A DNA stretch of 64,000 nucleotides from Minisyncoccia bacterium (GCA_038215155.1 JBBQRF010000001.1:54042-118041); one strand, 5' to 3'. Positions 1,560-40,809 are shown, counted from the stretch's first letter. Made by a program: numbers and translations. The notes: generated by a model from the sequence alone, not told the origin.

Positions 1560-2702
1560 TTAATCAATGAAGGTTAAGGCCTTACCTTTCTTGTTTCCTC
1601 GCCCTGTGCGGCCGATTCGGTGAATATAATCGTCGTTAGTAGCCGGTAAATCAAAATTGATGACGTGGGAAATATTATCTATATCCAAGCCTCGGGCAGC
1701 TACATCCGTCGCCACCAGCACCTGTATATGGTTTTCTTTGAAAAGTTTTAAAGCTCTCTGTCGCTGACTATGATTCTTATTACCGTGGATAGAATCAGAT
1801 TTGAAGCCTCTTTTGCCTAGTATCTGAGAGAGATTTTCCACTCCCCTTTTTGTGCGTCCAAAGATTAGCACTTTTGTAAGCTCTTTTTGGTTTAGTAAAT
1901 CGTGTAGAAGTTCGGTCTTGTTTTGACTTCGGCCGACTCTAATAACGTCCTGCTCCACATTTTTAGCGGTATCTTGGCTTTTGACAGAAATTCGCACTGC
2001 TTCATGCAAGAACTCGTGAATTAATTTATCAATCTCCGGTGAAAGAGTGGCGGAAAAAAATAAAGTCTGTCGCTTCTTTGGCATGGCGCCCATGATAATT
2101 CTCATATCATTGATAAAGCCCATGTCGAGCATTCGATCTGCTTCATCTAAGACAATGGTATTGAAATTAGCTGGACGAATGAGGTGGCGGTTAATCAAGT
2201 CTTTTAATCGTCCCGGCGTACCAATAATAAAATTATTCTTGTATTTTAATTCTCTAATCTGTGGGCCAATAGGCGCTCCTCCCACGCAACAAACAGAAAA
2301 GATTTTCATGCCAGAGGCAAAATCTTTTAGTTCGCTCTGAATCTGAATAGCTAGTTCTCTAGTTGGCACAATAATCATTATTTCCTCCGCCCTATTTAAG
2401 AGAACTTTATTAATTAGAGGAATGATAAAAGCGGCTGTTTTACCAGTGCCTGTGTTGGCGATACCTACCAGGTCTGACCCTTCGAGGATACGACCAATAG
2501 CCCGATCCTGGATGGGAGTCGGCATCGTATACTTTTTATTGACGATAGATTTTTTCAGGATTTGCTCAATCTTGAAATCTTCAAATCGATGTTCAGGTTT
2601 GAAATGCTCCGCTTCTTCCGTAATAACGGCTTTATTGATGAATTTTGCAAAATTGATCTTTTCAGTCTTTCCCTTGAACTTCCGTGGATATTTCTTATAC
2701 AT
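1560..2702 (-). CDS. DEAD-box ATP-dependent RNA helicase
   Basis: 380 aa with Q-motif region, Walker A GTGKTAAF, DEAD, SAT, and HRIGRTGR (motif VI). Confidence 0.92.
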   Translation of the reverse strand: MYKKYPRKFKGKTEKINFAKFINKAVITEEAEHFKPEHRFEDFKIEQILKKSIVNKKYTMPTPIQDRAIGRILEGSDLVGIANTGTGKTAAFIIPLINKVLLNRAEEIMIIVPTRELAIQIQSELKDFASGMKIFSVCCVGGAPIGPQIRELKYKNNFIIGTPGRLKDLINRHLIRPANFNTIVLDEADRMLDMGFINDMRIIMGAMPKKRQTLFFSATLSPEIDKLIHEFLHEAVRISVKSQDTAKNVEQDVIRVGRSQNKTELLHDLLNQKELTKVLIFGRTKRGVENLSQILGKRGFKSDSIHGNKNHSQRQRALKLFKENHIQVLVATDVAARGLDIDNISHVINFDLPATNDDYIHRIGRTGRGNKKGKALTFID

Positions 2703-2848: not shown

Positions 2849-3556
2849 TTATCTTCGAAAGATTTTGAAAAACCAGCCGAAGAGACTAACTCCACTTGCA
2901 TGAGCGTCGATGAAAGCTTGTAAGGATGCTTGCTCTCTAACCAATACTTGAATTTGAGTGTTCAATTCTGCCTTTATAGCAACGTCAGTAGAAGAAGCAG
3001 CTAAAGCTCTTAATTGATTGATGGTTACTGTGGTGTTGGCTACCGCTGCTCTAAGGAGACTTAAACTAGTTTCATCTGTTCCAAAAAAGAAAACATGAAG
3101 TCGGCCTTGTCCTTCAAGATGGGACATTGCCGCAACAGTGCTTGAGCTTGAATGATCTTGATCTTCAGCAATGACACGAACCTTGGCTCCTATTCCTTTA
3201 TCGTGATCAGCAATATTAAGGAGATGCTGAACGAAACTAGCAACAACGCTTCGGTGCATGTCAGCACTTTCCTCACCCTGTGTTTCTACATCATTATCAT
3301 TCTTATCTTCGTTTCGTACCGTGGTAGTACTAGAATTATGTCCCGACACTTCGTCGCGTTCTCCACGATCTTTATGGCGAGAGTTTAAGTCACCATCAGC
3401 ATCTATTTCTTCAGAGGTATTTGCAGAATCTTCACCATTAGTAATCTTTAGTTGTGAATTCACGGAGGTTCGGAAATTTGTTTCCGCAAAAGCAAAACTG
3501 GAACTTATCAAACTAAGCATAAGGGCTAGGGATAAGAAAAGACTTGTTTTTTTCAT
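2849..3556 (-). CDS. secreted hypothetical protein (signal peptide)
   Basis: 235 aa; N-terminal MKKTSLFLSLALMLSLISSSFAFA signal-peptide-like segment; acidic, Ser/Asp-rich mature part with a predicted helical C-terminus. No recognisable catalytic motif. Confidence 0.5.
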   Translation of the reverse strand: MKKTSLFLSLALMLSLISSSFAFAETNFRTSVNSQLKITNGEDSANTSEEIDADGDLNSRHKDRGERDEVSGHNSSTTTVRNEDKNDNDVETQGEESADMHRSVVASFVQHLLNIADHDKGIGAKVRVIAEDQDHSSSSTVAAMSHLEGQGRLHVFFFGTDETSLSLLRAAVANTTVTINQLRALAASSTDVAIKAELNTQIQVLVREQASLQAFIDAHASGVSLFGWFFKIFRR

Positions 3557-3687
3557 GTTTAATATTTAATTAGTTATTAATAAATAAATCGGATAATACC
3601 CTCTACATCATAGCAGACGTATCGTCACAATCACTCTTACACACCCTCCTCTTTCAAAACGGCTTATTGTATGCTTATATTTAATTT

Positions 3688-5028
3688 ATGAAATCTTATT
3701 TACATTCATTGGGCAAGTGGCCGATCTGGCATAATTACAGTCCTACAGAATGGGTCTTAATAAGTGTCGGCGCACTTGCATTATTTTATATTGCTCTAAA
3801 TTTTTTTACATCTTTTGGAGATCAGACTCCTCCTCCTAAAATTGACTCTTCTGTCAGCTTAAATGATATCGGCCAATTTGAGGAAACTTTAGCGCATGCT
3901 GTAAATTCCAATATTTATGATATGCCTTCCGATTCGGTAAAAATATTAACTAATGGTGGTGAATTCCTGCCCGACTTATTGTCTGAAATCCAAACGGCAA
4001 AAAGTTCAATTTCAATCACCGATTATATTTGGGACGGTGGCAGTTTCGGCAACACATTATTTGAAGCATTAATTAAGAAAGCTCAGGAAGGGGTAGAGGT
4101 CAAAGTGCTGGTTGACGGGACTGGTGGGCATAAGGCAGATACAGACCTAATTAAAAAACTAGAACAGGCCGGAGGCAAGTTCGCTCGATTTCGTCCTGTC
4201 AGGTGGTGGAATTTAAATCGTATTGATCGCCGAACCCATGTACGAGATTTTGTCATTGATAATAAAACTGCCTATGTGGGAGGCATTGCTATTTCCGATT
4301 TATGGCTTGGAGATGCCACCACTTCCAAATCTTGGCATGATTTTATGTTTAAGTCGGGTGGATTATTAGCAGATCAATCCGCCAAGATTTTTAATGTAAT
4401 GTGGAGCAACACTACTGGAGAAATTTTACAAACATCATCCAACACAGAACTTGGTGGGAAACTAGCTCCAAAAGGCTCTAGTTTTGTCCCACTATTCAGT
4501 GTCCCCTCACCTGATATGTCTCACAATATGGAACATTTCATTTGGCTTTCAATGGGTGCAGCTGACCACTCCATCCATATTGAAAATCCATATCTTGTGC
4601 CGAGTAAATCTTTGCTTCAGATGCTGGAAAATAAAGCTCGAGAAGGTGTGGACGTAAAAATTATTGTCCCGGGGAAAAACACCGATGCTAAATACACTAG
4701 GTGGGCTACCCAGTCTTTCTACTCAGAGTTATTAAAGGCGGGGGTAAGAATTTTTGAATACCAACCTTCCCGTATACATGCCAAAATTATGGTGTTTGAT
4801 AATAAATGGAGCATTGTAGGGTCAGCTAACCTAGACAATCGTTCCAGTCAGATTAACCTAGAGTATGTAGTAGGTATTGCAGATCCTAAATTTGCCACTA
4901 ATTTAGAAGATAAGTTTCAAGAGGATTTAACCAAGACCAAAGAGATTACCAAGGAGAATTGGAAAGGTACCTCAACATTCAAACTTCCTTTTGAATTAGT
5001 TTCTAAAATATTTATTAAGCAATACTAA
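3688..5028 (+). CDS. cls: cardiolipin synthase / phospholipase D family protein
   Basis: 446 aa; N-terminal TM helix; two HKD motifs, HVRDFVIDNKTAYVGGIAISD and HAKIMVFDNKWSIVGSANLDNRS. Confidence 0.85.
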   Translation: MKSYLHSLGKWPIWHNYSPTEWVLISVGALALFYIALNFFTSFGDQTPPPKIDSSVSLNDIGQFEETLAHAVNSNIYDMPSDSVKILTNGGEFLPDLLSEIQTAKSSISITDYIWDGGSFGNTLFEALIKKAQEGVEVKVLVDGTGGHKADTDLIKKLEQAGGKFARFRPVRWWNLNRIDRRTHVRDFVIDNKTAYVGGIAISDLWLGDATTSKSWHDFMFKSGGLLADQSAKIFNVMWSNTTGEILQTSSNTELGGKLAPKGSSFVPLFSVPSPDMSHNMEHFIWLSMGAADHSIHIENPYLVPSKSLLQMLENKAREGVDVKIIVPGKNTDAKYTRWATQSFYSELLKAGVRIFEYQPSRIHAKIMVFDNKWSIVGSANLDNRSSQINLEYVVGIADPKFATNLEDKFQEDLTKTKEITKENWKGTSTFKLPFELVSKIFIKQY

Positions 5029-5555: not shown

Positions 5556-6038
5556 CTATGATAGAAGTGTTTTTAGAAGATTTTCAATATCAAGTGGCAA
5601 GGTTACCATCTCCACCTCGCCATCATTGTTAACTTTCCATTCAGATCTAGGGCGGTCTGCATAAAGTTCTATTCCGTTACCATCTGGATCATTAAGATAA
5701 ATAGCTTCTGAAACTCCATGATCAGATGCGCCCGCTAGAGGATAATTTACATCGATTAATTTCTGCAGAGTGTGCGCCAGTTCTTTTCTACTGGGATACA
5801 AAATAGCCGTATGATATAAACCGGTGTGGCCGCTCGGTGCTGGTGTGCCCCCCAAACTCTCCCAGGTGTTGAGCCCAATGTGGTGATGATAACCACCCGC
5901 CGAAAGAAAGACGGCTTCTTTTCCGTAGCGAGCAGTCACTTCAAAACCAAGCATGTCTCGATAAAAACCGAGAGCTCGCTCTAGATCGGCCACTTTTAAA
6001 TGTACGTGGCCGATCGTTACATCCCTATGAACCCCCAT
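5556..6038 (-). CDS. VOC/glyoxalase-family protein (extradiol dioxygenase-like)
   Basis: 160 aa; IGHVHLKVADLERALGFYRDMLGFEV is a typical glyoxalase/bleomycin-resistance fold N-terminus; HHHIGL metal-binding region. Confidence 0.8.
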   Translation of the reverse strand: MGVHRDVTIGHVHLKVADLERALGFYRDMLGFEVTARYGKEAVFLSAGGYHHHIGLNTWESLGGTPAPSGHTGLYHTAILYPSRKELAHTLQKLIDVNYPLAGASDHGVSEAIYLNDPDGNGIELYADRPRSEWKVNNDGEVEMVTLPLDIENLLKTLLS

Positions 6039-7844: not shown

Positions 7845-8017
7845 AGCAAGGCACTCCTCTTTAGAACAAAGAAAGAGTCACTAGCTTGTTATGAAACTTC
7901 AGAAAGATCTGGAAGTGATTAGCAAAGCGATGTTTCGCTCGTTTTAATCGCTTCTCCTTTGTTTGATAATCGTAATACATCATATTATTTAAGACGTGAA
8001 TAGTTAATAAACCTTAC

Positions 8018-9274: not shown

Positions 9275-9493
9275 TCAATGGCTCTGGACAATACCTCGGA
9301 TGAAATTGAGAAGTAATAGAAAATCTTGCCAAATTATTTTAGTCAGTCCCCATACGTAGATGAAAAAATCTCGAACTGATTGCTTGGCCAAGAGACCGCT
9401 TAAACTAATATTTAAAAAATGAATAATGAGCAGAGCAATAATTAAGACGACAATGATTTGAATGATGCCTTGTTTATTTGGTCGTTTTTTCAT
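9275..9493 (-). CDS. small putative membrane protein (uncertain)
   Basis: About 72 aa (MKKRPNKQGIIQIIVVLIIALLIIHF...) with one or two hydrophobic helices. It overlaps the asnB stop region. Weak support. Confidence 0.2.
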   Translation of the reverse strand: MKKRPNKQGIIQIIVVLIIALLIIHFLNISLSGLLAKQSVRDFFIYVWGLTKIIWQDFLLLLNFIRGIVQSH

Positions 9494-11321
9494 TGACAAA
9501 GACATTATACCAAAGGGCGAGAAGGTAGAGAACGTATATTTTCCTAGAATTATCCGCTTTTTTGTTAAGGTGATTTTCGGAAAGCTGGCGAATATATTTC
9601 AGACTAAATTTAGTTGAAATATATTCATTTTCGACAATTGTACTTAAAATTTCCTTGGCCGTAGTTTCATTTTGGAGCCAGTTGCGGATTGGTGTTGGGA
9701 AGCCGAGTTTTTTGCGGCCTGCTGTCTCCTTGGGCAGGATGCTTTCAAATGCCTTGCGCAAAATGTATTTGGTTTGACCATTTTTGTATTTCAATTCTTC
9801 AGGAATGCGTCCGGATATTTTAGCAATTTCAATGTCAAGAAAAGGCACACGTAGCTCCAGTGAATTAGCCATTGTCATCTTATCTGCTTTGGCCAAGATG
9901 TCGCCTGGCAGCCAAGTATTTATATCGATGAATTGCATTTTGGCAGAATCGAGCTGAATTTTCACTTGATCATAGACGGGGTTTAGATCTAGTTTCTCGT
10001 TAGGATTGGCTTTCCATAGTTCGGCAATTTCTTCAGGGTGAAAGATGTAAGCATTGCCAATGTAGCGTTCTCGGATAGGAATGAGAACGCGATTCAAATA
10101 ATTTTTGCCGTAGAAATTCAAAGGTAGATGAGCAAAAAAGTGGATGAGTGATTTGGGTAGCCATTTTAATTTATTAAGGGCAAATGGTTCGCGATAAATA
10201 TTGTAGCCGCCAAATAGTTCATCACTTCCCTCGCCCGAAAGCACCACCTTGACGTGCTTTCGGGCTTCTCTAGCCAAGAAGTAAAGCGCCACCGCTGAGG
10301 GGTCGGCGACCGGCTCGTCGAAATGCCATACCACTTTAGGCATTTCTTGGAAATATTCTTCTGGCGAAATATTAATTTCAGTGTGATCAGTACCTAGAAG
10401 ATCGGCCATTATTTTAGCTTCACTCTGCTCGCTGACTTCTTCAAATCCAATGGTGAATGTTTTGAGATTTCCGCCTTGCTCTTTGCGAACTTTACTCATC
10501 ATGGCAACAATGATGGCGCTATCAATACCGCCAGACAGAAAGGCACCCACGGGAACATCAGCAATCATATGAGCCCGTACTGAGTTTTCAATTCCTTCTT
10601 GAATTTCCTTTTTTAGTAGGATCTCATCAATATTTTTTTCCCGAAACTGATAACCCCAATATTTCTCCTCTTTAATACTTTGGTCGGCTAAATTGATCTT
10701 TAAAAAGTGACCGGGTAAAAGTTTGTGAATATTGCGAAAAAAAGTTTCTTTTAAAGGATTGTATTGGTAAGAAAGATAGTTATAGATGGCGCGCTCATTT
10801 AATTCCGGTTTAAAATCTGGATGAAGGAGCAGGCACTTCATCTCTGAAGCAAATCCTTTCAACTTCCAATCGTCAAAATAATAATAAAGTGGCTTAATAC
10901 CGAAATAATCTCGCGCGACGAACATCTCGTCGCGCCCTAAATCATAAATAGCAAAAGTGAACATTCCTCGAAGTCGGAGTAGCATTTCTTCGCCGTGTTG
11001 CTCATATAAGTGAATTAGAGTTTCAGTATCGCTTTCTGTTGTAAGAGTGTGTCCTTGCAGTATTAATTCTTCTCGAAGTTCCCGATAATTGTAGATCTCA
11101 CCATTAAATACAATACAAATAGTTTTATTTTCATTCCAGATCGGTTGATCGCCAGTGGAAAGATCTATAATGCTCAAGCGCCGCATACCGATAGAAGCTT
11201 TCGGGCCATCAAAAAAACCATCATCGTCAGGCCCGCGATGATGAATTCTCTCAACCATTTCTCTAATTATCTTTTCTTTGTTTGGAGTGTTTGCTCCGAC
11301 GATTCCAGCAATGCCGCACAT
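9474..11321 (-). CDS. asnB: asparagine synthase (glutamine-hydrolysing)
   Basis: 615 aa; N-terminal MCGIAGI (Cys2 nucleophile of an Ntn amidotransferase); SGGIDSA PP-loop. Confidence 0.92.
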   Translation of the reverse strand: MCGIAGIVGANTPNKEKIIREMVERIHHRGPDDDGFFDGPKASIGMRRLSIIDLSTGDQPIWNENKTICIVFNGEIYNYRELREELILQGHTLTTESDTETLIHLYEQHGEEMLLRLRGMFTFAIYDLGRDEMFVARDYFGIKPLYYYFDDWKLKGFASEMKCLLLHPDFKPELNERAIYNYLSYQYNPLKETFFRNIHKLLPGHFLKINLADQSIKEEKYWGYQFREKNIDEILLKKEIQEGIENSVRAHMIADVPVGAFLSGGIDSAIIVAMMSKVRKEQGGNLKTFTIGFEEVSEQSEAKIMADLLGTDHTEINISPEEYFQEMPKVVWHFDEPVADPSAVALYFLAREARKHVKVVLSGEGSDELFGGYNIYREPFALNKLKWLPKSLIHFFAHLPLNFYGKNYLNRVLIPIRERYIGNAYIFHPEEIAELWKANPNEKLDLNPVYDQVKIQLDSAKMQFIDINTWLPGDILAKADKMTMANSLELRVPFLDIEIAKISGRIPEELKYKNGQTKYILRKAFESILPKETAGRKKLGFPTPIRNWLQNETTAKEILSTIVENEYISTKFSLKYIRQLSENHLNKKADNSRKIYVLYLLALWYNVFVNEKTTK

Positions 11322-25810: not shown

Positions 25811-27409
25811 TTATGCTGCTGGCAGTTCTACCCAAAATGTAGATCCTTTCCCGGTTCCTTCTGATTCTGCCCAAATGCGGCCTTTGTGAGCTTCCACAAT
25901 TTCCTTGGCGATGAAGAGGCCGTAGCCGGTGCTGTTGACGTTGACCTTGGTGGATTCTTTGCCACGACCACCTTCAGTAAAGAGCCGTTTCTTATCTTCT
26001 TCGGTAATGCCCACACCCGTGTCTTTTATACTAAAAAATATTTTCCCATCTTTTTTAGCCAATGAGATTTTCAAGCCACCCTTCAGGGTGTATTTAATAG
26101 AGTTATCAATCAGATTCCCCACGACATGTTGACTGAGTTGATCTCGATCGCCAATGGTGGTGAAATCGACATCTCCCGGAATAATAGTCTCCAATGTCAG
26201 ATTTTTATTTCGAGCCTCCTTTGTGTGTCCCTCAATCTGATCAACGACTACTTTTCGGAAATCAAAAGACTCTCGTTTATATGTAACTGTTCCCTTCTTT
26301 AAGTTAGCGGCGCTTAAGATACTCATTACTGTCTCTACTCCCTCCTGATTATCTCTAAGCCCTTCTTTGGCGACAGATTTAATAGAATCAGGAGTCTCAC
26401 CAAAATCCCCTTCAAGTATTCCAGCAAAAGCAGCCTTACTCTTGGTCAAGTATCCCTTGATTTGATGGCTGACGAAATGAATCAGACCTTCCTGGCGGTC
26501 ATTGGCAAGTTGTAATTCACTGGCCAAATGTTCAATCTTCTCGCGCTGCTCTACCTCGCGCAAAACTCCTCGAATGAGATTGATTCCAAAAATTAAAACT
26601 AAAATAAAAATACTGCTTCGAAATATAATTAATGAAGCAGTATTGGCAAAGATTATTTCGATAAAACTTACGAGAGCTAAGAAAAAAGTAATTATTGCAG
26701 TGCTAACCACTTTTACATTAAATAAATGATGTCGAGCTATGGCATAGGCGGTAAAAAGAACAAATGGAAAAACGAAAAGGGCGCTCAGGGGTATGAACCT
26801 TGTGTTGTTTAATAGCGTAGGAAAAATTAAATTAAAAACAATTATCAAAGTAAACATGATGCTCACGCCCGAAAGCAAAAGAGTAAATTGTTTTCTTTCG
26901 ATTCCGCCTGCTATACCTCTTTTTTTTACCATTAAGAAAATCCCGTTTCCTACTAAAGACACTGCTAATATTACAAACAACAAAATACCGGGTGCTGCTA
27001 TGGGTTGCGACACAGTGCCTAATGGTGCCGCTTTAATACCAGAATAGACAAAAGGAGTCAACGTTAACAAAGCAGTGCCCAAAACAGCGAGCTTTAAATG
27101 TCTTCTATATTTAGAGGTAAATGTAAACGTGGTGTTAGGAAAGACAGACATAAGCTTATAAAAAAAATATGCCTGAAAAATAGCAAAAAATAACACTAAT
27201 TTAATCAGAAACAAGACTAATGAAATATTGGCAACTTGGTAGTTTAAATAACTTACGACTCCCCATAACATAGTGCTAACAGAAAAACCCAAAAAGTATT
27301 TATTTGTGATGCTTTTTGGGTTACTAAAATAAATTACCGAGCCCAAAATTCCCGTACTTGCAACGACAAAACCAACAGACAAAAGATCAAAATTATGGAA
27401 CGAAGACAT
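25811..27409 (-). CDS. sensor histidine kinase with polytopic (about 7 TM) input domain
   Basis: 532 aa; about 300-aa hydrophobic N-terminus with no large periplasmic loop; H-box HFVSHQIKGYL; N-box GNLIDNSIKYT; G1 DTGVGI; G2 GYGLFIAKEIVEAHKG. No response-regulator gene in the window. Confidence 0.85.
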   Translation of the reverse strand: MSSFHNFDLLSVGFVVASTGILGSVIYFSNPKSITNKYFLGFSVSTMLWGVVSYLNYQVANISLVLFLIKLVLFFAIFQAYFFYKLMSVFPNTTFTFTSKYRRHLKLAVLGTALLTLTPFVYSGIKAAPLGTVSQPIAAPGILLFVILAVSLVGNGIFLMVKKRGIAGGIERKQFTLLLSGVSIMFTLIIVFNLIFPTLLNNTRFIPLSALFVFPFVLFTAYAIARHHLFNVKVVSTAIITFFLALVSFIEIIFANTASLIIFRSSIFILVLIFGINLIRGVLREVEQREKIEHLASELQLANDRQEGLIHFVSHQIKGYLTKSKAAFAGILEGDFGETPDSIKSVAKEGLRDNQEGVETVMSILSAANLKKGTVTYKRESFDFRKVVVDQIEGHTKEARNKNLTLETIIPGDVDFTTIGDRDQLSQHVVGNLIDNSIKYTLKGGLKISLAKKDGKIFFSIKDTGVGITEEDKKRLFTEGGRGKESTKVNVNSTGYGLFIAKEIVEAHKGRIWAESEGTGKGSTFWVELPAA

Positions 27410-27424
27410 TTGTGTAAAATTATA

Positions 27425-28453
27425 TCAGTTTTTTAAAACGTCTGAAACCGAAAGACGCGGACTATGTGGTTGCGAAGTGATTGCGCGGCCTACTCGAAAT
27501 ATAAATTGACTATGAAAACCGGGCTTTATAAAAAAATTTAATTTTTCTCGATAATTCGGAGACAAGATGGGTGCTGCCCATACTGCCGTTTTTAAATTGA
27601 ATTGTTCTGCAATTAAGGCGATTCTTTCATAGCATTCCCCCACCTTTATCCAATCAACTTTTGTATCCGTCATGGAACTTAACAAAATATAAGCTGGAGT
27701 ACCGTCAGTGAGTATTTTTAAAGTCGAAGACTTATTAAGGCGATCCATATTAAAAAATTTTACTAAATTAGGAACAATAAAAGATGGTAATAGAGGTATA
27801 CCCATCCCAAATGCAGGGATACCAATTTTGGATTTTGTTATATTATTTTTCACATATGGACTGAGTTCTCGTCGAAATTTTGAATTGTCCATTAATTCTA
27901 TATTTGAACTAACTATTATATCCGCAATTCCCTCTTTATCTGTATGGCCGTCAACAACGTTTATATTCATCTTAGGATTATCCAACTGAGAAAGTGCTTC
28001 TCTAAATTCTATAGAAAGTGGCTCCCTATGATAATTACTACGATTTACAGATCTTTTTACAATTGAAAAAATCAAGTGAGAAGAATTTTTTCGTATTGCG
28101 GTTTCGTCGAAACGAATGATGGCGACTAGATTTTCATGTATTGCATCAGGAAGATAAGAGACGTCGTATGATAGGCCGTAGTAATCTGCGGCTACACGTA
28201 TGTTTTCGATAGCACACCCCAAATTCATCAATAATAATCTATTATCAGGGTCACCCACCTTTAATTTTCGGAGAGAATTTTGGTAAATAAAAATACTTTG
28301 GTCGCGTATTTCAAAAATCCATGGCTGACTGTTATGACTCGAGGGCGCTAGAACTGCAAAATTAATTAGGAAATGTAATTTTTCTTTCCACGTGCGGCAC
28401 TCTTCGTATTTAGCAAAGTCAATGTCCCAAGGTTTATAATTTTCCTTTTCCAT
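27425..28453 (-). CDS. two-domain nitroreductase-family flavoprotein (SagB/Acg-like?)
   Basis: About 342 aa from ATG 28453. APSSHNSQPW is the nitroreductase-family FMN-binding motif. Its length implies a tandem or two-lobed nitroreductase fold. Confidence 0.6.
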   Translation of the reverse strand: MEKENYKPWDIDFAKYEECRTWKEKLHFLINFAVLAPSSHNSQPWIFEIRDQSIFIYQNSLRKLKVGDPDNRLLLMNLGCAIENIRVAADYYGLSYDVSYLPDAIHENLVAIIRFDETAIRKNSSHLIFSIVKRSVNRSNYHREPLSIEFREALSQLDNPKMNINVVDGHTDKEGIADIIVSSNIELMDNSKFRRELSPYVKNNITKSKIGIPAFGMGIPLLPSFIVPNLVKFFNMDRLNKSSTLKILTDGTPAYILLSSMTDTKVDWIKVGECYERIALIAEQFNLKTAVWAAPILSPNYREKLNFFIKPGFHSQFIFRVGRAITSQPHSPRLSVSDVLKN

Positions 28454-28457
28454 ATAA

Positions 28458-29870
28458 TTATTTTTTAACCCACCGTTGTTTGCCTTGTGAATTAAAATAT
28501 TTTGAATGTTGGTAAGGCCACCCAATAATTAACGGAATTACTTTTGAGGGTTCGGTTGAATAAAGATAAGCATATTCTGAATTGTGAGTTCGCAAACCCA
28601 GTATTATAGATTCGGTAATTTGTTTTTTTAATTTGGGATTCCAGCGTATTCCTTTTTTAAGTTCAACGTGTATTTCCAGTATTCTATCCATTTTTTTGTT
28701 CTCACGTTTCATCATGGTAGCCTTTCCTGTTAGATAGCGATTTAAAGGATAGCTGTCGATAATAGACCTAATTTCCTCCGGATAAATGTTTGCACCTCTA
28801 AAAACCATACCTAAGTCTGACCGTGCATAGACATAAACAAAGGGCAACTTTAATATTTGATCAAATATTTTATATTTTAAAATTTCCTTCTCGATACTAA
28901 TTCCACTTTTTTTTAACTTTCTCATCATTTCGTCATAAGTAATCACACCCCCAAGATCTGCAAACTCGTAACGAATAAGCGGAATAGAAGAGCCATAATT
29001 AGTGGCTACTACTTTTTTTCCAACCTCCTCAAAAAAAATACTTTGCGGGTAATATTGACCTATTGTCGGAATATTGGTGGCATGTGGAAAGATGGATAAA
29101 AAAACTTTCGGATTTTCATTGGCAATTTTTCGGATTAAGTTAGACAAGGATGTTTCATGCGCAATCGTTCCTTGTTCAACGGTACCGTAAATATTGATAA
29201 TATCGTTTAAAGGGTTTTTTAACCCAGATTTTTTGACAATATAATTGCGGAATTCCTCGGAATACCCTTCCGCAGCAGTTAAAATACGTAAATTATGTTT
29301 AGACCAATGAATGCCTGCCTCCTTTCCACTATCTAAAATATCTTTTATGAAAGGTGGGTAGCCCATCAAGATAACTTGATCATAAAAAGGAGCGAACTTT
29401 TTAAACGACTGAAGATATAACTCTTTGTTTGTGCCGACCGGTACAAGTGTAAAATCATAACCTTTCTGGGCAATTTTGTTGAAATTCTTGTAGGTAAAGA
29501 TGCCGCCAATCCAAATACCAAGTCCAAAGCCCACTATGCCTAGGGTGCGCTTCTTATCTAATTCAAATTGATTGATTAAAAAAATCTCCGATGCGTGCTC
29601 ATATTGACGATCGTGGTCCTCATCGCGCGGAAAGAAAAAAGGCTCACCAGTAGATCCTGAAGTGGCTGAGATTGTCGTTGCCACGGAGACATCTCGATTT
29701 GGAAAAAGGTCAAGATAATCGTGGCTACGGAGATAAGCGTCCTTTGAAAGAAGCGGTAGTTTATGAAAATCCTTGATAGTGGAAATCCGTCCCTTGAATC
29801 CTTGTTTTCTAATAAATTGGCGATAGGCGGGAACGGTTTCGTAAACATACTTAAATAAATTTATAGCCAT
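28458..29870 (-). CDS. PaaK/F390-synthetase-like adenylate-forming enzyme
   Basis: About 470 aa from ATG 29870, preceded by AGGGGGAAAAT. SATSGSTGEPFFFPR resembles the PaaK-family AMP-binding motif. An in-frame open extension upstream (possible starts at 29987/30023) leaves the start uncertain. Confidence 0.55.
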   Translation of the reverse strand: MAINLFKYVYETVPAYRQFIRKQGFKGRISTIKDFHKLPLLSKDAYLRSHDYLDLFPNRDVSVATTISATSGSTGEPFFFPRDEDHDRQYEHASEIFLINQFELDKKRTLGIVGFGLGIWIGGIFTYKNFNKIAQKGYDFTLVPVGTNKELYLQSFKKFAPFYDQVILMGYPPFIKDILDSGKEAGIHWSKHNLRILTAAEGYSEEFRNYIVKKSGLKNPLNDIINIYGTVEQGTIAHETSLSNLIRKIANENPKVFLSIFPHATNIPTIGQYYPQSIFFEEVGKKVVATNYGSSIPLIRYEFADLGGVITYDEMMRKLKKSGISIEKEILKYKIFDQILKLPFVYVYARSDLGMVFRGANIYPEEIRSIIDSYPLNRYLTGKATMMKRENKKMDRILEIHVELKKGIRWNPKLKKQITESIILGLRTHNSEYAYLYSTEPSKVIPLIIGWPYQHSKYFNSQGKQRWVKK

Positions 29871-29979
29871 ATTTTCCCCCTGCCTCTTCCAATATGCTGC
29901 GGGCCGTCTTTTGTAATATGCCAAAGATTTCTCAATCTTGGGAGGAACGAAGTGGGCAAATTTATTTTTCTTTTTGGGG

Positions 29980-31068
29980 CTAGGCATAGGAATTAAAAAT
30001 CTTTTCGGCCATGATATTGGCAATAATATTAGGCGCGGTATTTTCTTTTTTGCTTTTTCTTAAAATATTTTGAAGGGTGTTAGGGATTTCCAACACTTGT
30101 TTTAGTACTTTATTTTCACGATATGTCTTATTCTTAAATTCATCGAAAACAGCAATGAGGCCGCCGGCATTAATGACGTAGTCGGGCGCGTATAGAATAT
30201 CCAATTTGTGGAGCAGTACTCCGATATTTTCATTGGCTAATTGGTTGTTGGCACTACCGGCTATGATTTTAGCTCTAATTTCGGTAATAGTCATTGAGCT
30301 AAGGGAGCCGCTCAGGGCACACGGAGAGAAGACGTCGACATTTTGTTTATGAATTTCTTCCGGCTTTACTATAATCACTTTTGGAAATTTGCGGCGGCAA
30401 AGAGCAATGGCTTTTGGATCGATGTCAGCTCCATAAATTTTCCCCGCTTCAATTCCAGATTTCTTCATTTCTTTCTCAATCAAGGTAAGAAGGGCGTTTC
30501 CAACCTTACCTAACCCTTGGATAGCGAAACTCCTTCCTTCAAAAGAGGTATTGCCATAAATCTCTTTTAAGCAAACTTTTATTGATTCGAAAATGCCGAC
30601 TGCTGTTAAAAAGGTGGCATTGTCATTGAAACCGACTATTTGATTTTTAGCAGCCTTCATTGAATTGAGGTCGCGTCTAAAGACGCCGGCATCCGTCCCG
30701 GTGACGAAGTGAGTAGAGAGAAAGGCTACTTTTTCGGCGTAACTTCTGAAGAGCTCCTTTCGCTTTTTTTCATCTCTATTCCCCACCTTATCAATGATCA
30801 CTCCCTTGGCGCCGCCACAATCAAGTCCTGCCATGGCGGATTTATATGACATAAGGCGAGATAAGCGAAGAGCATCCTGAAGTGCCTCGTTCAGTGAGCC
30901 GTATTGCCACAAACGTGTAGCGCCGAAAGATGGAATGGAAGGATTAGAACGATGAATAACAATAAATCCTTCTAGTCCGGAAGCTTCATCCTGAAGGTAG
31001 GCCACGAAACGATGATCATCAAACTCTGAAAAATCCTTTATGCTTTTTTCAGCTAAAAAGTCGGGCAT
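29980..31068 (-). CDS. Glu/Leu/Phe/Val amino-acid dehydrogenase family (Leu/Phe-DH-like)
   Basis: 362 aa; GATRLWQYGSLNEALQDALRLSRLMSYKSAMAGLDCGGAKGVI matches the LeuDH/PheDH substrate/catalytic-Lys region (GGTRMW...GGGK); Rossmann GLGKVG. Confidence 0.75.
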   Translation of the reverse strand: MPDFLAEKSIKDFSEFDDHRFVAYLQDEASGLEGFIVIHRSNPSIPSFGATRLWQYGSLNEALQDALRLSRLMSYKSAMAGLDCGGAKGVIIDKVGNRDEKKRKELFRSYAEKVAFLSTHFVTGTDAGVFRRDLNSMKAAKNQIVGFNDNATFLTAVGIFESIKVCLKEIYGNTSFEGRSFAIQGLGKVGNALLTLIEKEMKKSGIEAGKIYGADIDPKAIALCRRKFPKVIIVKPEEIHKQNVDVFSPCALSGSLSSMTITEIRAKIIAGSANNQLANENIGVLLHKLDILYAPDYVINAGGLIAVFDEFKNKTYRENKVLKQVLEIPNTLQNILRKSKKENTAPNIIANIMAEKIFNSYA

Positions 31069-31073
31069 AGTGT

Positions 31074-32153
31074 TTAAGCGTGAGTTGAATGAGTAATGTC
31101 TGTGGGTGAAATATAACTTCGAATATCTAAATCAGTACTTTCTCCAGAGACGACTTTCTTCAGCATGGCAGTTACGACGACGCCGCCTAAAATTGCGGCG
31201 GAGCCAAGCTGAGGCCAAGAAACAAGTTCCTTGGAAATTACACGGGGTACAGCCATCATCATGTTGGGGTCCACTTTGTCGGGTCCTCCGACAATATCTC
31301 CGATAATCATTTTGCCCGCCATTTCTTTAGTGAAAGGGCCAGCAGCCAATTTCTTTTTAAAATATTCGACGTCTTTGCCCCATATCTTGGTGTTGCCTAA
31401 ATCGTATCTTTCAACATGGAGAACTACGCCGTCGCCATTATCGGTCACCATTAATACGGCTTTTTTATATTTTATGGCAAGGAGGCGGGCATGAATTTTA
31501 AATGGCATATCATCAATTTCCTCAACAATGCAGTCAATCTTCCCCGCTTTCAATAATTCTTCTAAGTTATCTTCGTTTACGCCATCTTTCAATAACGTTA
31601 CTTCCGCAAAAGGATTGTCTTCGTAGATGCGGCGAGCGGCAATGATGGTCTTGTTGATACCTATCTGATGAGCACCTGCTAAGATTCTGTTTAAATTAGT
31701 GGTGTCGAGCTCGTCGAAATCAGCTAAGACGATCTTATTTGAGATTCCAGCTTGAGTCATGACGAAAGCAATGTTAGAGCCAACACTCATTCCAAGGACA
31801 GCTACTTTATAATCCCGTAATTTTTTCTGAAGATCGGGTGATATTAGTCCGTCGTTTCTGTTAGTCTTCAGGCGATAGTAGTTGTCGGCTTTAACTGTTT
31901 TGATTAAATGATGATTCCATGGGAAATAAACGTGAATAAAATCGTCCTTTTTATCATCGGTGTATTTTTTGAAGTCATCGGTCTTGTAGACTTCTTCTTT
32001 GTCTTGGCCGATGAATGAATGATTATCAATAAAGAACAATTCTTTTAGCTGACGATCAAAAGCGTCAACAACAGTGATATAGGAGTGCTGATTTAGAAAT
32101 TCTTCTACCTTCTCCGAGCTTTCAAAATAAAGCGGTTTTTCAGAAGTGTCCAT
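31074..32153 (-). CDS. E1-like (ThiF/MoeB/MccB superfamily) adenylyltransferase with N-terminal extension
   Basis: 359 aa; KVAVLGMSVGSNIAFVMTQAGI...IVLADFDELDTTNLNR matches the E1 nucleotide-binding fold (GxGxxG ... D.D.V..SNLNRQ). It has about 110 aa N-terminal and about 100 aa C-terminal extensions and no CxxC zinc motif. Confidence 0.7.
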   Translation of the reverse strand: MDTSEKPLYFESSEKVEEFLNQHSYITVVDAFDRQLKELFFIDNHSFIGQDKEEVYKTDDFKKYTDDKKDDFIHVYFPWNHHLIKTVKADNYYRLKTNRNDGLISPDLQKKLRDYKVAVLGMSVGSNIAFVMTQAGISNKIVLADFDELDTTNLNRILAGAHQIGINKTIIAARRIYEDNPFAEVTLLKDGVNEDNLEELLKAGKIDCIVEEIDDMPFKIHARLLAIKYKKAVLMVTDNGDGVVLHVERYDLGNTKIWGKDVEYFKKKLAAGPFTKEMAGKMIIGDIVGGPDKVDPNMMMAVPRVISKELVSWPQLGSAAILGGVVVTAMLKKVVSGESTDLDIRSYISPTDITHSTHA

Positions 32154-32273
32154 ATAGATATTATATAACAGATATAAAATAATGGCTCGGACGGGGATAA
32201 TCCGCTATAGATGATACAATGCGTCTTAAATTTATCAATGATAATTATCTCACAAGTATATACTTATAAAGAT

Positions 32274-32789
32274 CTAGTCTTTCCTTTTAAAAATAAACCT
32301 AATAATATGCCAAAATTTAACTTCCCCTCTCATGGTCTTACCATATCCCTCGGTGACGGATTTTTCGATGAGAGATAGGTTAAGAGAATCAATACAAGGA
32401 AGGATTTCCGGAAGATCGAAAAATGACATATTTTTATTGCCCATCCACTCGTCATGGGGACCGAAAAGGCTGAAATACATTACTCCATTAAGAGCTAATC
32501 CCTTTGACATATTAGCCAATATTTTCTTGACCTTTTCTTTATCGGAAATGAAAGAGAGGGTGTTATTGCAGATAATAACATTATATTTTTCAGGTTCGAT
32601 GTGAAAGTTCGTTATATCTGTTCTAATTGCTGATCTATATTCACTCCGAACATCTACGGAAATGACTTTGTAACCAAGTTTTTTAAAATACTCGGAATCA
32701 TCACCTGCTCCACACCCTAGATCAAGCATGTTACCGCTGTCTTTGATCAAGTCGAGCTCGATCATTTTGTTTATATAATGTTTTACCAT
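32274..32789 (-). CDS. class I SAM-dependent methyltransferase
   Basis: 171 aa; motif I LDLGCGAGDDS, followed by acidic post-I VISVDV. Confidence 0.7.
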   Translation of the reverse strand: MVKHYINKMIELDLIKDSGNMLDLGCGAGDDSEYFKKLGYKVISVDVRSEYRSAIRTDITNFHIEPEKYNVIICNNTLSFISDKEKVKKILANMSKGLALNGVMYFSLFGPHDEWMGNKNMSFFDLPEILPCIDSLNLSLIEKSVTEGYGKTMRGEVKFWHIIRFIFKRKD

Positions 32790-32860: not shown

Positions 32861-33376
32861 CTACGTGTTGGCGCAGTTGTGGCAACTCTTGCAGGACATA
32901 CATGAACCACAATCGCCACTTGGTTCTCCGGAATTACCCCAATTTTCGGAGATGACACCGAAAGTTGAGACTGCGACTGATGCCGCATTCAGGACTTTCC
33001 CTTCAAGTGATTCTCCACGACGACGCGGGCGATGATGGATGAAACGTCCAAATCTGGTTAAGCAAAACTCCTCGTAATCCAGAGTGAACAGGATGAAGTT
33101 ATGCCACATCTCATCAATCTTCGGTGGAGGAGCTATGGGCGTCGTGTTGGTAGCGCAGAGATACAAATATAGTTTTGTATCCTCGAAGCAGTGTACTGCA
33201 TCCTCTTCTTTCCATCCGTACTTATCCACCATGCGATGAATCAACGGAAGGAAAATGAATGCCAGAACATACTTAAGATCGACTCGAGACGCTGACTGAT
33301 CGTTAATCTCTCTGTCTTCTTTATCGGCCCGTGTACGCTTCGCACCCGTTTTAGGGGGTACAGCTATTGTTTTCAT
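32861..33376 (-). CDS. hypothetical protein with periodic-Cys C-terminal tail (candidate modified-peptide precursor)
   Basis: 171 aa; C-terminal GEPSGDCGSCMSCKSCHNCANT has Cys every third residue (C-xx-C-xx-C-xx-C-xx-C). Monocistronic, with its own terminator; divergent from the M16 peptidase gene. Confidence 0.5.
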   Translation of the reverse strand: MKTIAVPPKTGAKRTRADKEDREINDQSASRVDLKYVLAFIFLPLIHRMVDKYGWKEEDAVHCFEDTKLYLYLCATNTTPIAPPPKIDEMWHNFILFTLDYEEFCLTRFGRFIHHRPRRRGESLEGKVLNAASVAVSTFGVISENWGNSGEPSGDCGSCMSCKSCHNCANT

Positions 33377-33650: not shown

Positions 33651-34859
33651 ATGAAAGAATTTCATCTGGAAGACATTCCTGTACGGTTTCACCAAAAAAA
33701 AGATGCTCCAATTTATATCAGAGTTCAGTTTTTGGCTGGAAGTCGCTTTGACGAAAAGGAAGGTACTGCCCACTTTCTAGAACATATGATGTGCGCAGGC
33801 AGCCAAAAATTTACCACCAAGAATTTATTGGCTGAATACATAGAAGCTGTGGGTGGAAATTTCGCCTTAAGCACTAGTAGTGATTATATTAATATTGATA
33901 TCCAGGTTCCGACAAAAGATGAGATGAAGATTGCGGTGGTGATATTAGATGAAATGGTGAATCATTCGCTTTTTGAGCCCGCAACCTTAGAGACTGAGAG
34001 GGGCTCAATCTTGTCCGAACAAGTTATAGCCAAAAATGCACAACGTTCTTATATTCATACAGTATTCAAGAAATTAGCCTATCAAAAAACTGATATTGCA
34101 AAAAATGTCCTCGGAACCAAGGAGTCTGTGATGACTATAACCACGGAGGATCTAAAAAAACACAGGACCAAATATATCCATAGGCAGACTTTAAAAATCT
34201 TAGTTGTGGGAGATATTAGTGAGGAAGAACTCATAAAGGAAATGCGAGGTATAAATTGGGCAACTGGTCCATGTTTTATCGTGGTTAATTTACCCATAGT
34301 AGCAAATCAATTATTTGTCCTTGAAATTTATAATTCAAAAGAGGCTACCCTTCGAGCCGGTTTTAGATTAAGTACTTTTGATATTAAGAATCGAATCTGT
34401 GGGGATATTCTCGCGGAGTTTTTAGGCAGTAGTCGAAGTGGCATTTTAAGTCAAGAACTGCGATATAAAAGAGGTCTGATCTATTCCGCTTCCGCACACC
34501 ATTTTCAATCGATTGATGGGGGTACTTTTTCTGTTACTACCTCCACCGAGGTTAAAAATTTTGCCGAAGTTTTGTCCGTCATTAAACAGATCATAGAAGA
34601 TCTGATCGCTCAGGGAATTCCCGCCTCCACATTGAAATATATAAAATCTAAAATATTAAAATCTATGAAAATAGATTTACAGACCTCTAAAGCTTGGGTG
34701 AATTATATTGAGAATTATGATTTAGAAGAAACAAGCAGATACTTAGAGGATATAAGTGAAGGGGATATAAAAAATTATATCAATCAAAATTTTGCTATAG
34801 ATAAATTTTTTGTGGCCGTGTGCGGTCCAGAAGATCTTAGGATGATTTTAGAAAAGTAG
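33651..34859 (+). CDS. M16-family zinc peptidase (insulinase/pitrilysin-like, single chain)
   Basis: 402 aa; inverted zinc motif HFLEHM (HxxEH) near the N-terminus; downstream Glu-rich LETERGSILSE. Confidence 0.75.
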   Translation: MKEFHLEDIPVRFHQKKDAPIYIRVQFLAGSRFDEKEGTAHFLEHMMCAGSQKFTTKNLLAEYIEAVGGNFALSTSSDYINIDIQVPTKDEMKIAVVILDEMVNHSLFEPATLETERGSILSEQVIAKNAQRSYIHTVFKKLAYQKTDIAKNVLGTKESVMTITTEDLKKHRTKYIHRQTLKILVVGDISEEELIKEMRGINWATGPCFIVVNLPIVANQLFVLEIYNSKEATLRAGFRLSTFDIKNRICGDILAEFLGSSRSGILSQELRYKRGLIYSASAHHFQSIDGGTFSVTTSTEVKNFAEVLSVIKQIIEDLIAQGIPASTLKYIKSKILKSMKIDLQTSKAWVNYIENYDLEETSRYLEDISEGDIKNYINQNFAIDKFFVAVCGPEDLRMILEK

Positions 34860-34889
34860 CCCCCAACATTTAAGTTGAGAGGCTAGTCT

Positions 34890-35006
34890 TCAGCTGGGAT
34901 CGTGATCGGGACCGCTCGAATCGTGGCTAGAATCGCCACAGGAACCATCGTTGCAGTCGCTACAATCATCAGCTTTCTGGGAGACCATGATGTTTATATT
35001 TAGCAT
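34890..35006 (-). CDS. 38-aa Cys/Asp/Ser-rich small peptide ORF with strong SD
   Basis: GGAGG-TACT-ATG; translation MLNINIMVSQKADDCSDCNDGSCGDSSHDSSGPDHDPS (verified by reverse-complementing 34890-35006). Located between the M16 peptidase gene and a membrane-protein gene. Below the track cut-off. Confidence 0.35.
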   Translation of the reverse strand: MLNINIMVSQKADDCSDCNDGSCGDSSHDSSGPDHDPS

Positions 35007-35067
35007 AGTACCTCCTTTCTAAGGTGAATGCTAAACTTTTTTATTAAAAAAGCAACTCCTTTAAAAT

Positions 35068-35460
35068 TTAAATAAAATACAAATAAACTATAGGCAAAAT
35101 AACAGCTAGAAATGGATAATACCCTTTTAGAATGTATTGATTGACTAAGGCTGGTGTGGCATAGACGTTGGCCCCGGGCAAAATACTGTAAAAAACAAAG
35201 GTAGCTAAAATTAGGAGTAGCAGGGCGCCGAGAATATTTGCCAGAGTTTGCCGGCGACCAAGATACCCTACCGTTACATATCTCTGGATTACTAAGTAAC
35301 AGAAAATGAAAATTAGAATGTAAACAATGGCTCGCACAAAAAAGTGGCCAGAGGATGTGCTGCCGAAGGAGTCAATTCTTTTTAATAAACTGCTTGGAAT
35401 TGAATACCAGAGCAGGGTGGTGGGATAAAAAGAGAGGATAAGATTAAGAATTATGTTCAT
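35068..35460 (-). CDS. hypothetical integral membrane protein
   Basis: 130 aa; about 4 hydrophobic helices. No motif. Confidence 0.5.
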   Translation of the reverse strand: MNIILNLILSFYPTTLLWYSIPSSLLKRIDSFGSTSSGHFFVRAIVYILIFIFCYLVIQRYVTVGYLGRRQTLANILGALLLLILATFVFYSILPGANVYATPALVNQYILKGYYPFLAVILPIVYLYFI

Positions 35461-35541
35461 CTAAAATATTTTATCACACTTCTAATGCAAACTTGACTTA
35501 TTTATGAGAGGGTCCAAGATGGAAAAAGCCCTATAAAACCC

Positions 35542-36054
35542 ATGAACCTTTACAAAAGAATGCAAGTGGAAAATGCTTATCAGAATTCCAAAAAACTTAG
35601 GCAGAATCTTCCTGTGAATGCACAAATTACCTTGGTAGGAGGATGTTTTGATCTACTGCACGTAGGCCATATCCACCTTCTAAAATACGCAGCTTCGTTG
35701 GGAAATTTGGTTATTGTAGCTGTACTTTCGGACTCCTACATTCGTTCCTATAAAGGAGGGGTGCGGCCGATCATTTCGGAAGAAGACCGCCTTAGTTTAC
35801 TGGCTAGTATTAGATTTGTGGACTTTGCCTACATTTCTGATATTAGTACTACACACCCCAAGACTCTAAAATTTCTGCAGCCAGATCTTATGGTGTTTGA
35901 ACAGTCACCAACCAATGATTTAAGGATGAATGTTCGGCTGAAAAATATCTTTAACTTCTCTCCTAAGACAAAAATATTATTCCTACCTCGTTATAAGAAA
36001 GAGAACATTTCAACGGGCAGCATTATTAGTAGGATCCAAGATATTGAAAGCTAA
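35542..36054 (+). CDS. cytidylyltransferase-like nucleotidyltransferase (HxGH family)
   Basis: 170 aa; LVGGCFDLLHVGHIHLL is the (T/H)xGH motif of the CTP/ATP-transferase-like Rossmann family (TagD/RfaE-domain-II-like). Confidence 0.65.
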   Translation: MNLYKRMQVENAYQNSKKLRQNLPVNAQITLVGGCFDLLHVGHIHLLKYAASLGNLVIVAVLSDSYIRSYKGGVRPIISEEDRLSLLASIRFVDFAYISDISTTHPKTLKFLQPDLMVFEQSPTNDLRMNVRLKNIFNFSPKTKILFLPRYKKENISTGSIISRIQDIES

Positions 36055-40446: not shown

Positions 40447-40809
40447 TTAGGCATTAGGTCCTCTAGTTTTTTGAGTGGAAAAAAATTCTGCTTCTCTAAA
40501 TATATTTAAAAAATATGGAGATGGAACAAGGCGAAGTGTTGAGGTTTGATTAGAAATTGTAGAATTTCCGGCAAGGAGGTAAGTCTTCGCCGAAATATCT
40601 TCCTCGACAATGAGGAAGATATTTCGGCTCTTTAATTCATCTTTCTGGGCGAGGAGAATTTGATACTCCTGTGCTGTCAGGGCCTTTTCTCCGAGAATGG
40701 AGAGCTTTCTGTCCTGATTAAATACAAAAAATGAGGCATGCCATCTACCTTTAGTCCTTGAAACTAAGATGCCCGCTTGCTGATTCTGTTTTTTAATTAA
40801 TTCCAACAT
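40447..40809 (-). CDS. hypothetical ORF between grpE and dnaK (doubtful coding)
   Basis: 120-aa ORF that contains a perfect 17-bp inverted repeat in its middle. No recognisable domain; may instead be a regulatory or UTR region. Confidence 0.25.
   Translation of the reverse strand: MLELIKKQNQQAGILVSRTKGRWHASFFVFNQDRKLSILGEKALTAQEYQILLAQKDELKSRNIFLIVEEDISAKTYLLAGNSTISNQTSTLRLVPSPYFLNIFREAEFFSTQKTRGPNA
40589..40628. promoter_or_regulatory. perfect 17-bp inverted repeat (6-nt loop) upstream of dnaK
   Basis: gccgaaatatcttcctc-gacaat-gaggaagatatttcggc at 40589-40605 / 40612-40628, about 190 bp upstream of the dnaK start. Not followed by a U-run on the minus strand. Confidence 0.5.

Follow-up and report, generated by a model that had tools for sequence, protein, structure and literature searches.

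Does the 38-codon open reading frame that meets an M16 peptidase gene tail to tail encode a protein, and if it does, what would such a peptide be doing beside a peptidase? The frame, which we call pep1, occupies positions 34890..35006 (stop codon included) on the minus strand of the window, that is, of the whole 64-kb stretch of DNA analysed. A sequence-only reading had proposed it as an unannotated Cys-, Asp- and Ser-rich peptide gene preceded by GGAGG-N4-ATG, and had taken the product for a typical RiPP precursor or, alternatively, a metal-binding peptide. Here the gene is judged from the ORF listing, its homologues and a codon analysis, and its possible role from the genes that accompany it.

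The pep1 gene and its homologues

Translation of the minus strand gives exactly the peptide quoted earlier, MLNINIMVSQKADDCSDCNDGSCGDSSHDSSGPDHDPS (38 codons). In the start region, which reads gaaaGGAGGtactATG on the minus strand, the Shine-Dalgarno (SD) sequence GGAGG (35011..35015, minus strand, read from the sequence) lies 4 nt upstream of the ATG. The product has a net charge of about -7 and contains 8 Ser, 8 Asp (not the "about 10" first counted) and 3 Cys, the last forming the CxxCxxxxC motif already remarked upon (C15-x2-C18-x4-C23). Its layout is bipartite: a variable hydrophobic N-terminal segment (residues 1-12) precedes an almost invariant C-terminal module reaching from C15 to D36, and inspection by eye revealed no signal peptide or membrane segment. 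The GC content does exceed that of the flanks (0.50-0.52 across the ORF versus 0.24-0.35 in the flanks and 0.40 in the whole window), which the content of Asp, Gly, Ser and Cys codons suffices to explain.

The gene is indeed unannotated. Looking up the exact product returned no gene call on record, none exists at this place on an identical Logan contig, and padding the peptide to 40 amino acids for a word-indexed search of proteins brought up none. As many as 108 ORFs of at least 30 amino acids occur in 14 kb, so that the length of the frame alone is within chance and it is conservation that gives it significance. A phmmer search of 1.84 billion representative proteins with the window peptide gave a homologue of 42 amino acids, P0052 (E = 2e-4); P0051, from the same search, was rejected as a spurious repeat protein. 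Further homologues were found by tblastn of pep1 against contigs carrying the nearest M16 relatives (L005 and L006/L007, where the homologue (M)MFAFIYQRDDDGCGSCEDGSCGDSSHDSSGPEHD occupies the corresponding position, convergent with the M16 gene and immediately 3' of it) and by a three-sequence profile run against 5.8 billion proteins (P0053, P0054 and P0055, E = 8e-14 to 9e-7). The family thus assembled spans six lineages of metagenomic Patescibacteria, namely the window, L005/L006, L014, L015, L016 and L017, with products of 34-44 amino acids. Independent public gene calls (P0052-P0055) exist in three of the six, two of the four calls being closely similar sequences of the L014/L015 type. A degenerate DNA pattern for the motif matched once in the window against 0 expected, and a scan of viral contigs with the degenerate core motif gave 0 matches.

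Near the C-terminus the family carries the motif C-x2-C-x-D-x-S-C-G-D-S-S-H-D-x-x-G-P-[DE]-[HY]-D, of which the window peptide has every invariant position (alignment A3, six lineages). The N-termini differ, but all hold a short hydrophobic run (LFIAV, LFIVV, LVFIHV, FAFIY, INIMV or LIIC), and an acidic linker leads on to the C-terminal module. Over the 22-codon core, protein identity between lineages is 73-82% despite differences at 15-28 of the 66 nucleotides, most of them in third positions or in Ser TCN/AGY swaps. Each pair of lineages is separated by 8-14 synonymous versus 2-6 non-synonymous codon differences, and by the Nei-Gojobori method pS is saturated (0.56 to >1) with pN at 0.05-0.25. 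Saturated synonymous sites at this level of protein identity therefore indicate purifying selection on the protein, and several of the Ser TCN<->AGY swaps, being silent only in the pep1 frame, count towards coding. Start codon, SD and stop position are likewise conserved, an SD-like sequence being similarly placed in every homologue (AAGGAGGT, TAAGGAGA, TAAGGAGAA, GAGGTG and TGGAGGA). The peptide is much better conserved than the neighbouring peptidase, whose orthologues are 30-46% identical. A missing reading frame in relatives had been named in advance as what would overturn the gene; we find the frame kept in five other lineages, with substitutions dominated by synonymous ones.

These patterns make it scarcely credible that pep1 is a chance ORF between convergent genes, or that the conservation belongs to the RNA or DNA itself, as in a terminator or an sRNA. 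The abundance of ORFs of this size, the gene callers' omission of pep1 and the mirror ORF on the other strand would each agree with such an explanation, but it does not accommodate 23-42% nucleotide divergence alongside the observed peptide identity, the frame-specific silent Ser swaps, the conserved start, SD and stop, or the public gene calls made independently in half of the lineages. No RNA family was found by Rfam between window positions 34000-36000 at E <= 1. The antisense ORF (34902-35003, plus strand) is a mirror artefact: its wobble-matched frame is less identical between lineages and is broken by stops in two of them, L005 and L017. With near certainty, pep1 is a real, conserved protein-coding gene.

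Comparison with known families places it apart. No match was found in Pfam, NCBIfam or PADLOC, nor did any of five family members match Pfam at E <= 10 or a profile of the family match PDB sequences at E <= 10, and a literature search on small Cys-rich peptides of the CPR, on M16 and on HisKA_7TM found no description of it. An AlphaFold2 model built on a 5-sequence alignment (pLDDT 56, no secondary structure) was uninformative. By its sequence, pep1 represents a previously undescribed small-protein family of the Patescibacteria.

Directly after the pep1 stop codon lies a hairpin with a U-rich tail (34850..34891, minus strand), detected both by a terminator scan (match 34881..34860) and by RNA folding, which gave -19.6 kcal/mol and z = -6.5 against shuffled sequences. 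It spans the 30-nt gap to the stop codon of the M16 gene, entering a few bases of the M16 3' end, and is probably a bidirectional intrinsic terminator. Each homologue's stop codon is likewise followed by a strong hairpin with a U-tract (z from -5.4 to -7.1 in L005, L014 and L016), and pep1 ends its own transcription unit. On the other side, 61 nt upstream, a gene at 35068-35460 (minus strand) encodes a hydrophobic protein of 130 aa in which several hydrophobic stretches are visible by eye. Family searches left this protein unmatched, and the other pep1 loci lack a homologue; its gene is possibly co-transcribed with pep1, and a look for promoter-like sites in the 61-nt spacer found none.

The M16B peptidase and the wider neighbourhood

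The convergent neighbour (33651..34859, plus strand) encodes a 402-aa M16B zinc peptidase of the pitrilysin/insulinase type, matched by PF00675 (79 bits) and PF05193 (81 bits). A single chain combines an N-domain bearing the zinc motif HFLEH (HxxEH), predicted to be active, with an inactive Peptidase_M16_C domain; no signal peptide was seen by eye. HFLEH is retained in the window enzyme and in all orthologues compared. Even in the collection of 5.8 billion proteins, the nearest relatives of this M16 are only 45-46% identical to it, and therefore no close genome is available. Scans of genome collections and metagenomes seeded with the window M16 gave distant M16 genes alone (L001, L004).

The synteny between pep1 and M16 to which the sequence-only reading had pointed extends well beyond the window. 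The two genes are adjacent and convergent in five of the six lineages, their stop codons separated by 23-59 nt (30 in the window, 59 in L005, 58 in L006, 30 in L014, 31 in L015 and 23 in L016), with M16 partners in these loci that are 30-46% identical to that of the window. Beyond pep1 one finds, depending on the lineage, the 130-aa membrane protein (window), a 161-aa protein (L005), a tRNA synthetase (L006) or a second acidic peptide (L014-L017), and M16's outer neighbour changes from lineage to lineage as well. When ten window neighbours were compared by tblastn with the other loci, the sole one conserved was a GRDP-like protein, 8 kb off in L014. Because the adjacency is kept in five of six lineages while the neighbours on both far sides change, we consider it probable that pep1 is functionally coupled to M16.

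Several observations temper this conclusion. Peptidase orthologues of similar divergence in L008 (42% identical) and L012 (40%) do not have pep1 alongside, which means that the peptidase can do without the peptide. As the genes are convergent, they are not co-transcribed, and the known lineages number only six. Moreover, rearrangements have little room to strike in a 30-nt gap that contains a shared terminator, and residual synteny is seen in the kinase described below; some of the adjacency may therefore be inherited rather than selected. The sole pep1 locus without an M16 gene is L017, a 2.6-kb contig. Directly after its pep1, at 2155-2616 (plus strand), this contig encodes a protein truncated by the contig end and carrying an HELIH (HExxH-type) motif; it has no Pfam or NCBIfam match and could, from the motif, be a different metallopeptidase. 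Net charge and pI of M16, tried as markers of pep1 presence, gave no separation between enzymes with and without the peptide.

Small acidic peptides recur at these loci. In L014 (9803-9934), L015 (152-259), L016 (1200-1352) and L017 (1681-1779), a second small acidic ORF stands in tandem directly upstream of pep1, with the motif PEG-x-x-DGSDDF[DN]DS (L017 version, MPEGDSDNDGSGG...); the window has no second acidic peptide of this tandem type. L009/L010 contain a related acidic ORF that converges on M16 (in L009, DDDEGSDHDD, at 5755-5835 on the minus strand). Taken with the tandem ORFs, it indicates that M16 associates with small acidic peptides generally. A public call on the minus strand of L017 (75 aa, 1656-1883) is probably a mirror-strand artefact of the second acidic ORF.

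At L005, an exact 85-nt direct repeat flanks M16 (about 7884-7968 and about 9419-9503, minus strand). It comprises 52 nt of 5'UTR with the SD and the first 11 codons, MMFAFIYQRDD, and so gives rise to two small ORFs, pep1 and a chimeric second copy, which share their start, have different acidic C-termini and are each followed by a terminator hairpin. The closely related L006 has no such repeat, which could be a recent partial duplication, a gene conversion or an assembly artefact; the shared segment is consistent with a modular N-terminal part. Upstream of the small-peptide units of two distant lineages we also observed a motif, TTGACAtATCGTATA before pep1 in L005/L006 and TTGCACgATCGTATA before the second peptide in L017, which could be a -35 box with a regulator site.

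A further recurring gene encodes a 7TM-sensor histidine kinase of 532 aa (25811..27409, minus strand; HisKA_7TM and HATPase_c by Pfam). Its orthologues (47-48% identity across some 320 aa) are located 2-5 kb from M16/pep1 in L005 (1147-2766), L006/L007 (1511-3199 in L006) and L014 (4783-6363), and hence in every long pep1 locus, and none was found in the M16 loci without pep1 (L008, L009 and L012). Neither the Pfam results nor the precomputed Pfam labels of the kinase loci include a response-regulator domain. From this distribution we infer that the kinase may belong to the same system as pep1 and M16. Between kinase and M16, L005 additionally has a radical SAM/SPASM enzyme (2863-4295, plus strand) whose gene overlaps the start of a 44-aa acidic ORF with C-x-D motifs, MKTLSLYQDDGKPGIIAEGVVIARNSPCYDDCYDCDSDSDHAGA. 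The best NCBIfam matches of the enzyme are of the NirJ2, AhbD, GeoRSP and ScmE types, with PapB weaker, and the two genes likely form a thioether-type RiPP pair.

The window itself holds a cluster of enzymes at 27425-32789 (minus strand): a nitroreductase, a PaaK-like adenylating ligase (521 aa, no Pfam match), a ScyB-like amino-acid dehydrogenase, a ThiF-like protein and a SAM methyltransferase. The ThiF-like protein matches the N-terminal half, and the Acg-type nitroreductase the C-terminal half, of the Rv1355c/TrzS family. TrzS (Rv1355c) was shown to convert acylated amino acids, as opposed to peptides, into N-acyl oxazolones, and TyzB/TyzC are its split equivalent (PMC12856293, PMC10404671). 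Together with the ligase and the dehydrogenase, the ThiF/nitroreductase cluster more plausibly represents a small-molecule pathway; it has the appearance of a split N-acyl-oxazolone pathway of the TrzS/TyzBC type, in which the adenylating ligase would replace the TyzA/TrzA acyltransferase. If so, this would be an unusual biosynthetic capacity for a CPR organism. Homologues of the ThiF-like protein, nitroreductase, ligase, dehydrogenase and methyltransferase were absent from the pep1 flanks of L005, L006 and L014 (about 3-10 kb per side). Maturation of pep1 by this cluster was rejected, as its genes are not co-conserved with pep1 and match oxazolone enzymes (PMC12856293).

The product of a gene divergent from M16 (32861-33376, minus strand) has 171 aa, with WHxxIL...Y..C forming its core and the Cys-rich sequence GDCGSCMSCKSCHNCANT its tail. 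Its homologue in L014 (1573-2082, 8 kb from pep1) is 30% identical, ends in the Cys-rich sequence CGDCQVSDCDAPQC and bears the precomputed Pfam labels UCP032817-like and GRDP-like. The tail had been thought to share a DC/GSC theme with pep1; BLASTP gave E = 1.9 for the single pair, which is not significant, and the tail was dropped as a relative of pep1.

Known systems and competing explanations

The polarity of pep1 is unusual for a RiPP precursor. In most RiPPs the leader is conserved and the core variable; pep1, with its variable N-terminal part and almost invariant C-terminal part, is the reverse and fits cofactor-type precursors, for which invariance of the core across taxa is typical. 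PqqA and its peptidase PqqF offer a likeness, since there too a zinc peptidase of the M16 family goes with a tiny ribosomal peptide whose core is highly conserved. However, pep1 lacks E-x3-Y, pqqB, pqqC, pqqD and pqqE are all absent among the window neighbours scanned, and the match of the window M16 to the PqqF model TIGR02110 is weak (E 1.6e-5, 23.9 bits versus a cut-off of 320). Another resemblance is to the Agr system (AgrD precursor, AgrC kinase), in which a protease and a histidine kinase with a polytopic sensor likewise accompany a peptide of ~40 aa that starts hydrophobic, carries Cys in its middle and ends in an acidic tail. Unlike Agr, the pep1 locus has no linked AgrB-like protease or exporter and no response-regulator domain, and its M16 appears cytoplasmic, so that by this comparison the likeness would be architectural only.

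The CCHC zinc knuckle (zf-CCHC, PF00098), which comes closest in ligand spacing, has the pattern C-x2-C-x4-H-x4-C. Like it, pep1 is small and presents four potential ligands at 2-4-4 spacing within 14 residues; unlike it, pep1 has the ligands in the order C-C-C-H, is strongly acidic instead of basic and gives no profile match at E <= 10. Ranthipeptides, for their part, have Cys-Asp thioether sites. Those of the PapA/PapB type and SCIFF resemble pep1 in being short and acidic with repeated Cys...Asp motifs, of which pep1 has three C-x-D, but no radical SAM/SPASM enzyme stands beside pep1 in the window, L006 or L014, and there is no NCBIfam match to SCIFF. TOMM/LAP systems differ as well, with no YcaO among the 20 ORFs scanned and an E1-like protein and nitroreductase that match the TrzS/Rv1355c halves. 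Precedents in which M16 peptidases act on small precursor peptides come from IndP (PMC12150305) and PttP1/PttP2 (PMC10885120); in architecture, such pairs, PqqA/PqqF included, come closest to pep1 and its M16. The minimal IndA/IndF/IndP cluster of Streptococcus consists of a small precursor, a two-domain M16 leader protease and a ThiF-like enzyme (PMC12150305); the window similarly combines a small peptide, an M16 and, at a distance of 1.5 kb from the latter, a ThiF-like gene. Its ThiF-like gene is, however, not conserved with pep1 and matches the cyclase half of TrzS/Rv1355c, and a C-terminal macrocycle finds no support. The PttP1/PttP2 heterodimer is a dedicated M16 leader peptidase for class III lanthipeptides, whose precursors contain Cys and Ser (PMC10885120, PMC8960859), whereas in the window no lanthipeptide synthetase was found, the one M16 gene presumably yields a homodimer, and the pep1 core is invariant and acidic.

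How, then, should the constancy of the peptide and of its neighbour be explained? One candidate, the one first favoured by the sequence-only reading, is a classical RiPP precursor whose Cys, Ser and Asp residues are modified by the enzymes of the 27.4-32.8 kb cluster or else by a radical-SAM enzyme from an unlinked locus, with M16 removing the leader. Its leader-like and core-like parts, the adjoining M16 and the existence of minimal ThiF-like plus M16 clusters (IndA/IndF/IndP, PMC12150305) speak for it, as do the three C-x-D motifs, which recall the Cys-Asp sites of ranthipeptides, and the radical SAM/SPASM enzyme with its C-x-D peptide between kinase and M16 in L005. We nevertheless regard it as improbable. 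No modification enzyme is co-conserved with pep1, the M16 protease and the histidine kinase being the only genes that recur; the window enzymes have no homologues in the pep1 flanks of L005, L006 and L014; and the ThiF-like protein and nitroreductase, as halves of Rv1355c/TrzS, better fit an oxazolone-type pathway (PMC12856293, PMC10404671). No radical SAM was found in the 64-kb window, in L006 or in L014 by tblastn with the L005 radical SAM/SPASM protein and a CxxxCxxC scan, and Pfam detected no YcaO, LanM/KC or ATP-grasp among 20 ORFs (about 17.3-36.1 kb plus 40447-40809). The core, finally, is invariant where a typical RiPP precursor would have it hypervariable.

A stronger contender, although still on the unlikely side, is that pep1 acts at full length as an autonomous metal-binding mini-protein, zinc-knuckle-like with CCCH ligands or Fe-S-ligating, which M16 does not process. 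It might serve, for example, as a metal buffer, a metallochaperone or an acidic binding partner, and its adjacency to M16 would then go back to synteny by descent, to the bidirectional terminator that both genes share or, at most, to zinc-related co-regulation. Every one of the six lineages keeps C-x2-C-x4-C-x4-H unchanged, along with the Gly and Pro of turn-like positions, the 2-4-4 spacing equals that of the CCHC knuckle, and the whole module is constrained like a folded or ligand-binding unit. The absence of co-transcription, the M16 orthologues without pep1 and the residual synteny of the kinase point the same way. Against it, neither Pfam, NCBIfam nor PDB provides a match (E <= 10 for Pfam and PDB) and AlphaFold2 gave no fold. 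It also leaves unexplained why Cys-poor second acidic peptides are linked to M16, and why the pep1/M16 pair alone survives amid rearrangements on both sides.

A proposed role for pep1

The reading we prefer, with confidence falling just short of even, is that pep1 represents a new family with a CCCH signature that is paired functionally with M16B, most likely as its substrate or precursor. Its components merit different degrees of trust: beyond the coupling itself, for metal binding by the CCCH module, a putative property, we see the chances as evenly balanced, and that the peptide is a substrate or precursor of M16 is a tentative proposal, somewhat less secure than either. The earlier alternative of a metal-binding peptide fits the C-x2-C-x4-C-x4-H set, as far as ligand spacing can suggest it.

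M16 enzymes such as IDE, pitrilysin and M16B enclose peptides of less than about 70 residues, which are bound as added beta-strands. We propose that pep1 would be a dedicated small-peptide partner of M16B and most likely its substrate, with the hydrophobic, strand-like N-terminal segment of 5-7 residues serving as a recognition or leader part. A cut by M16 in the acidic linker would then release the C-terminal module, whose three Cys and one His at zinc-knuckle (2-4-4) spacing would probably bind a metal ion. Once released, the module might handle metal, act as a cofactor-like product or signal to the nearby 7TM kinase. Its 17 consecutive invariant residues are more than a simple zinc knuckle or a protease substrate requires, a point against this reading.

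A more far-reaching proposal, which we offer as a long shot, joins pep1, the second acidic peptide, M16B and the orphan 7TM kinase in a Patescibacteria-specific peptide circuit, or else makes pep1 the source of a peptide-derived metal cofactor or metallophore formed without a classical RiPP maturase. As a circuit, the processed metal-binding peptide would be a signal sensed by the kinase, and could mediate cell-cell or symbiont-host communication in these episymbionts.

The Patescibacteria (CPR) have tiny genomes with many unexplained genes, and small ORFs such as this one are systematically missed by gene callers. That a gene of 38 codons is strictly retained in a minimal genome implies that it has an important role. 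The pairing of pep1 with M16B offers a testable handle on the roles of stand-alone bacterial M16B peptidases and of the peptide itself, and the link to the kinase, if true, would suggest peptide signalling in an uncultured symbiotic phylum.
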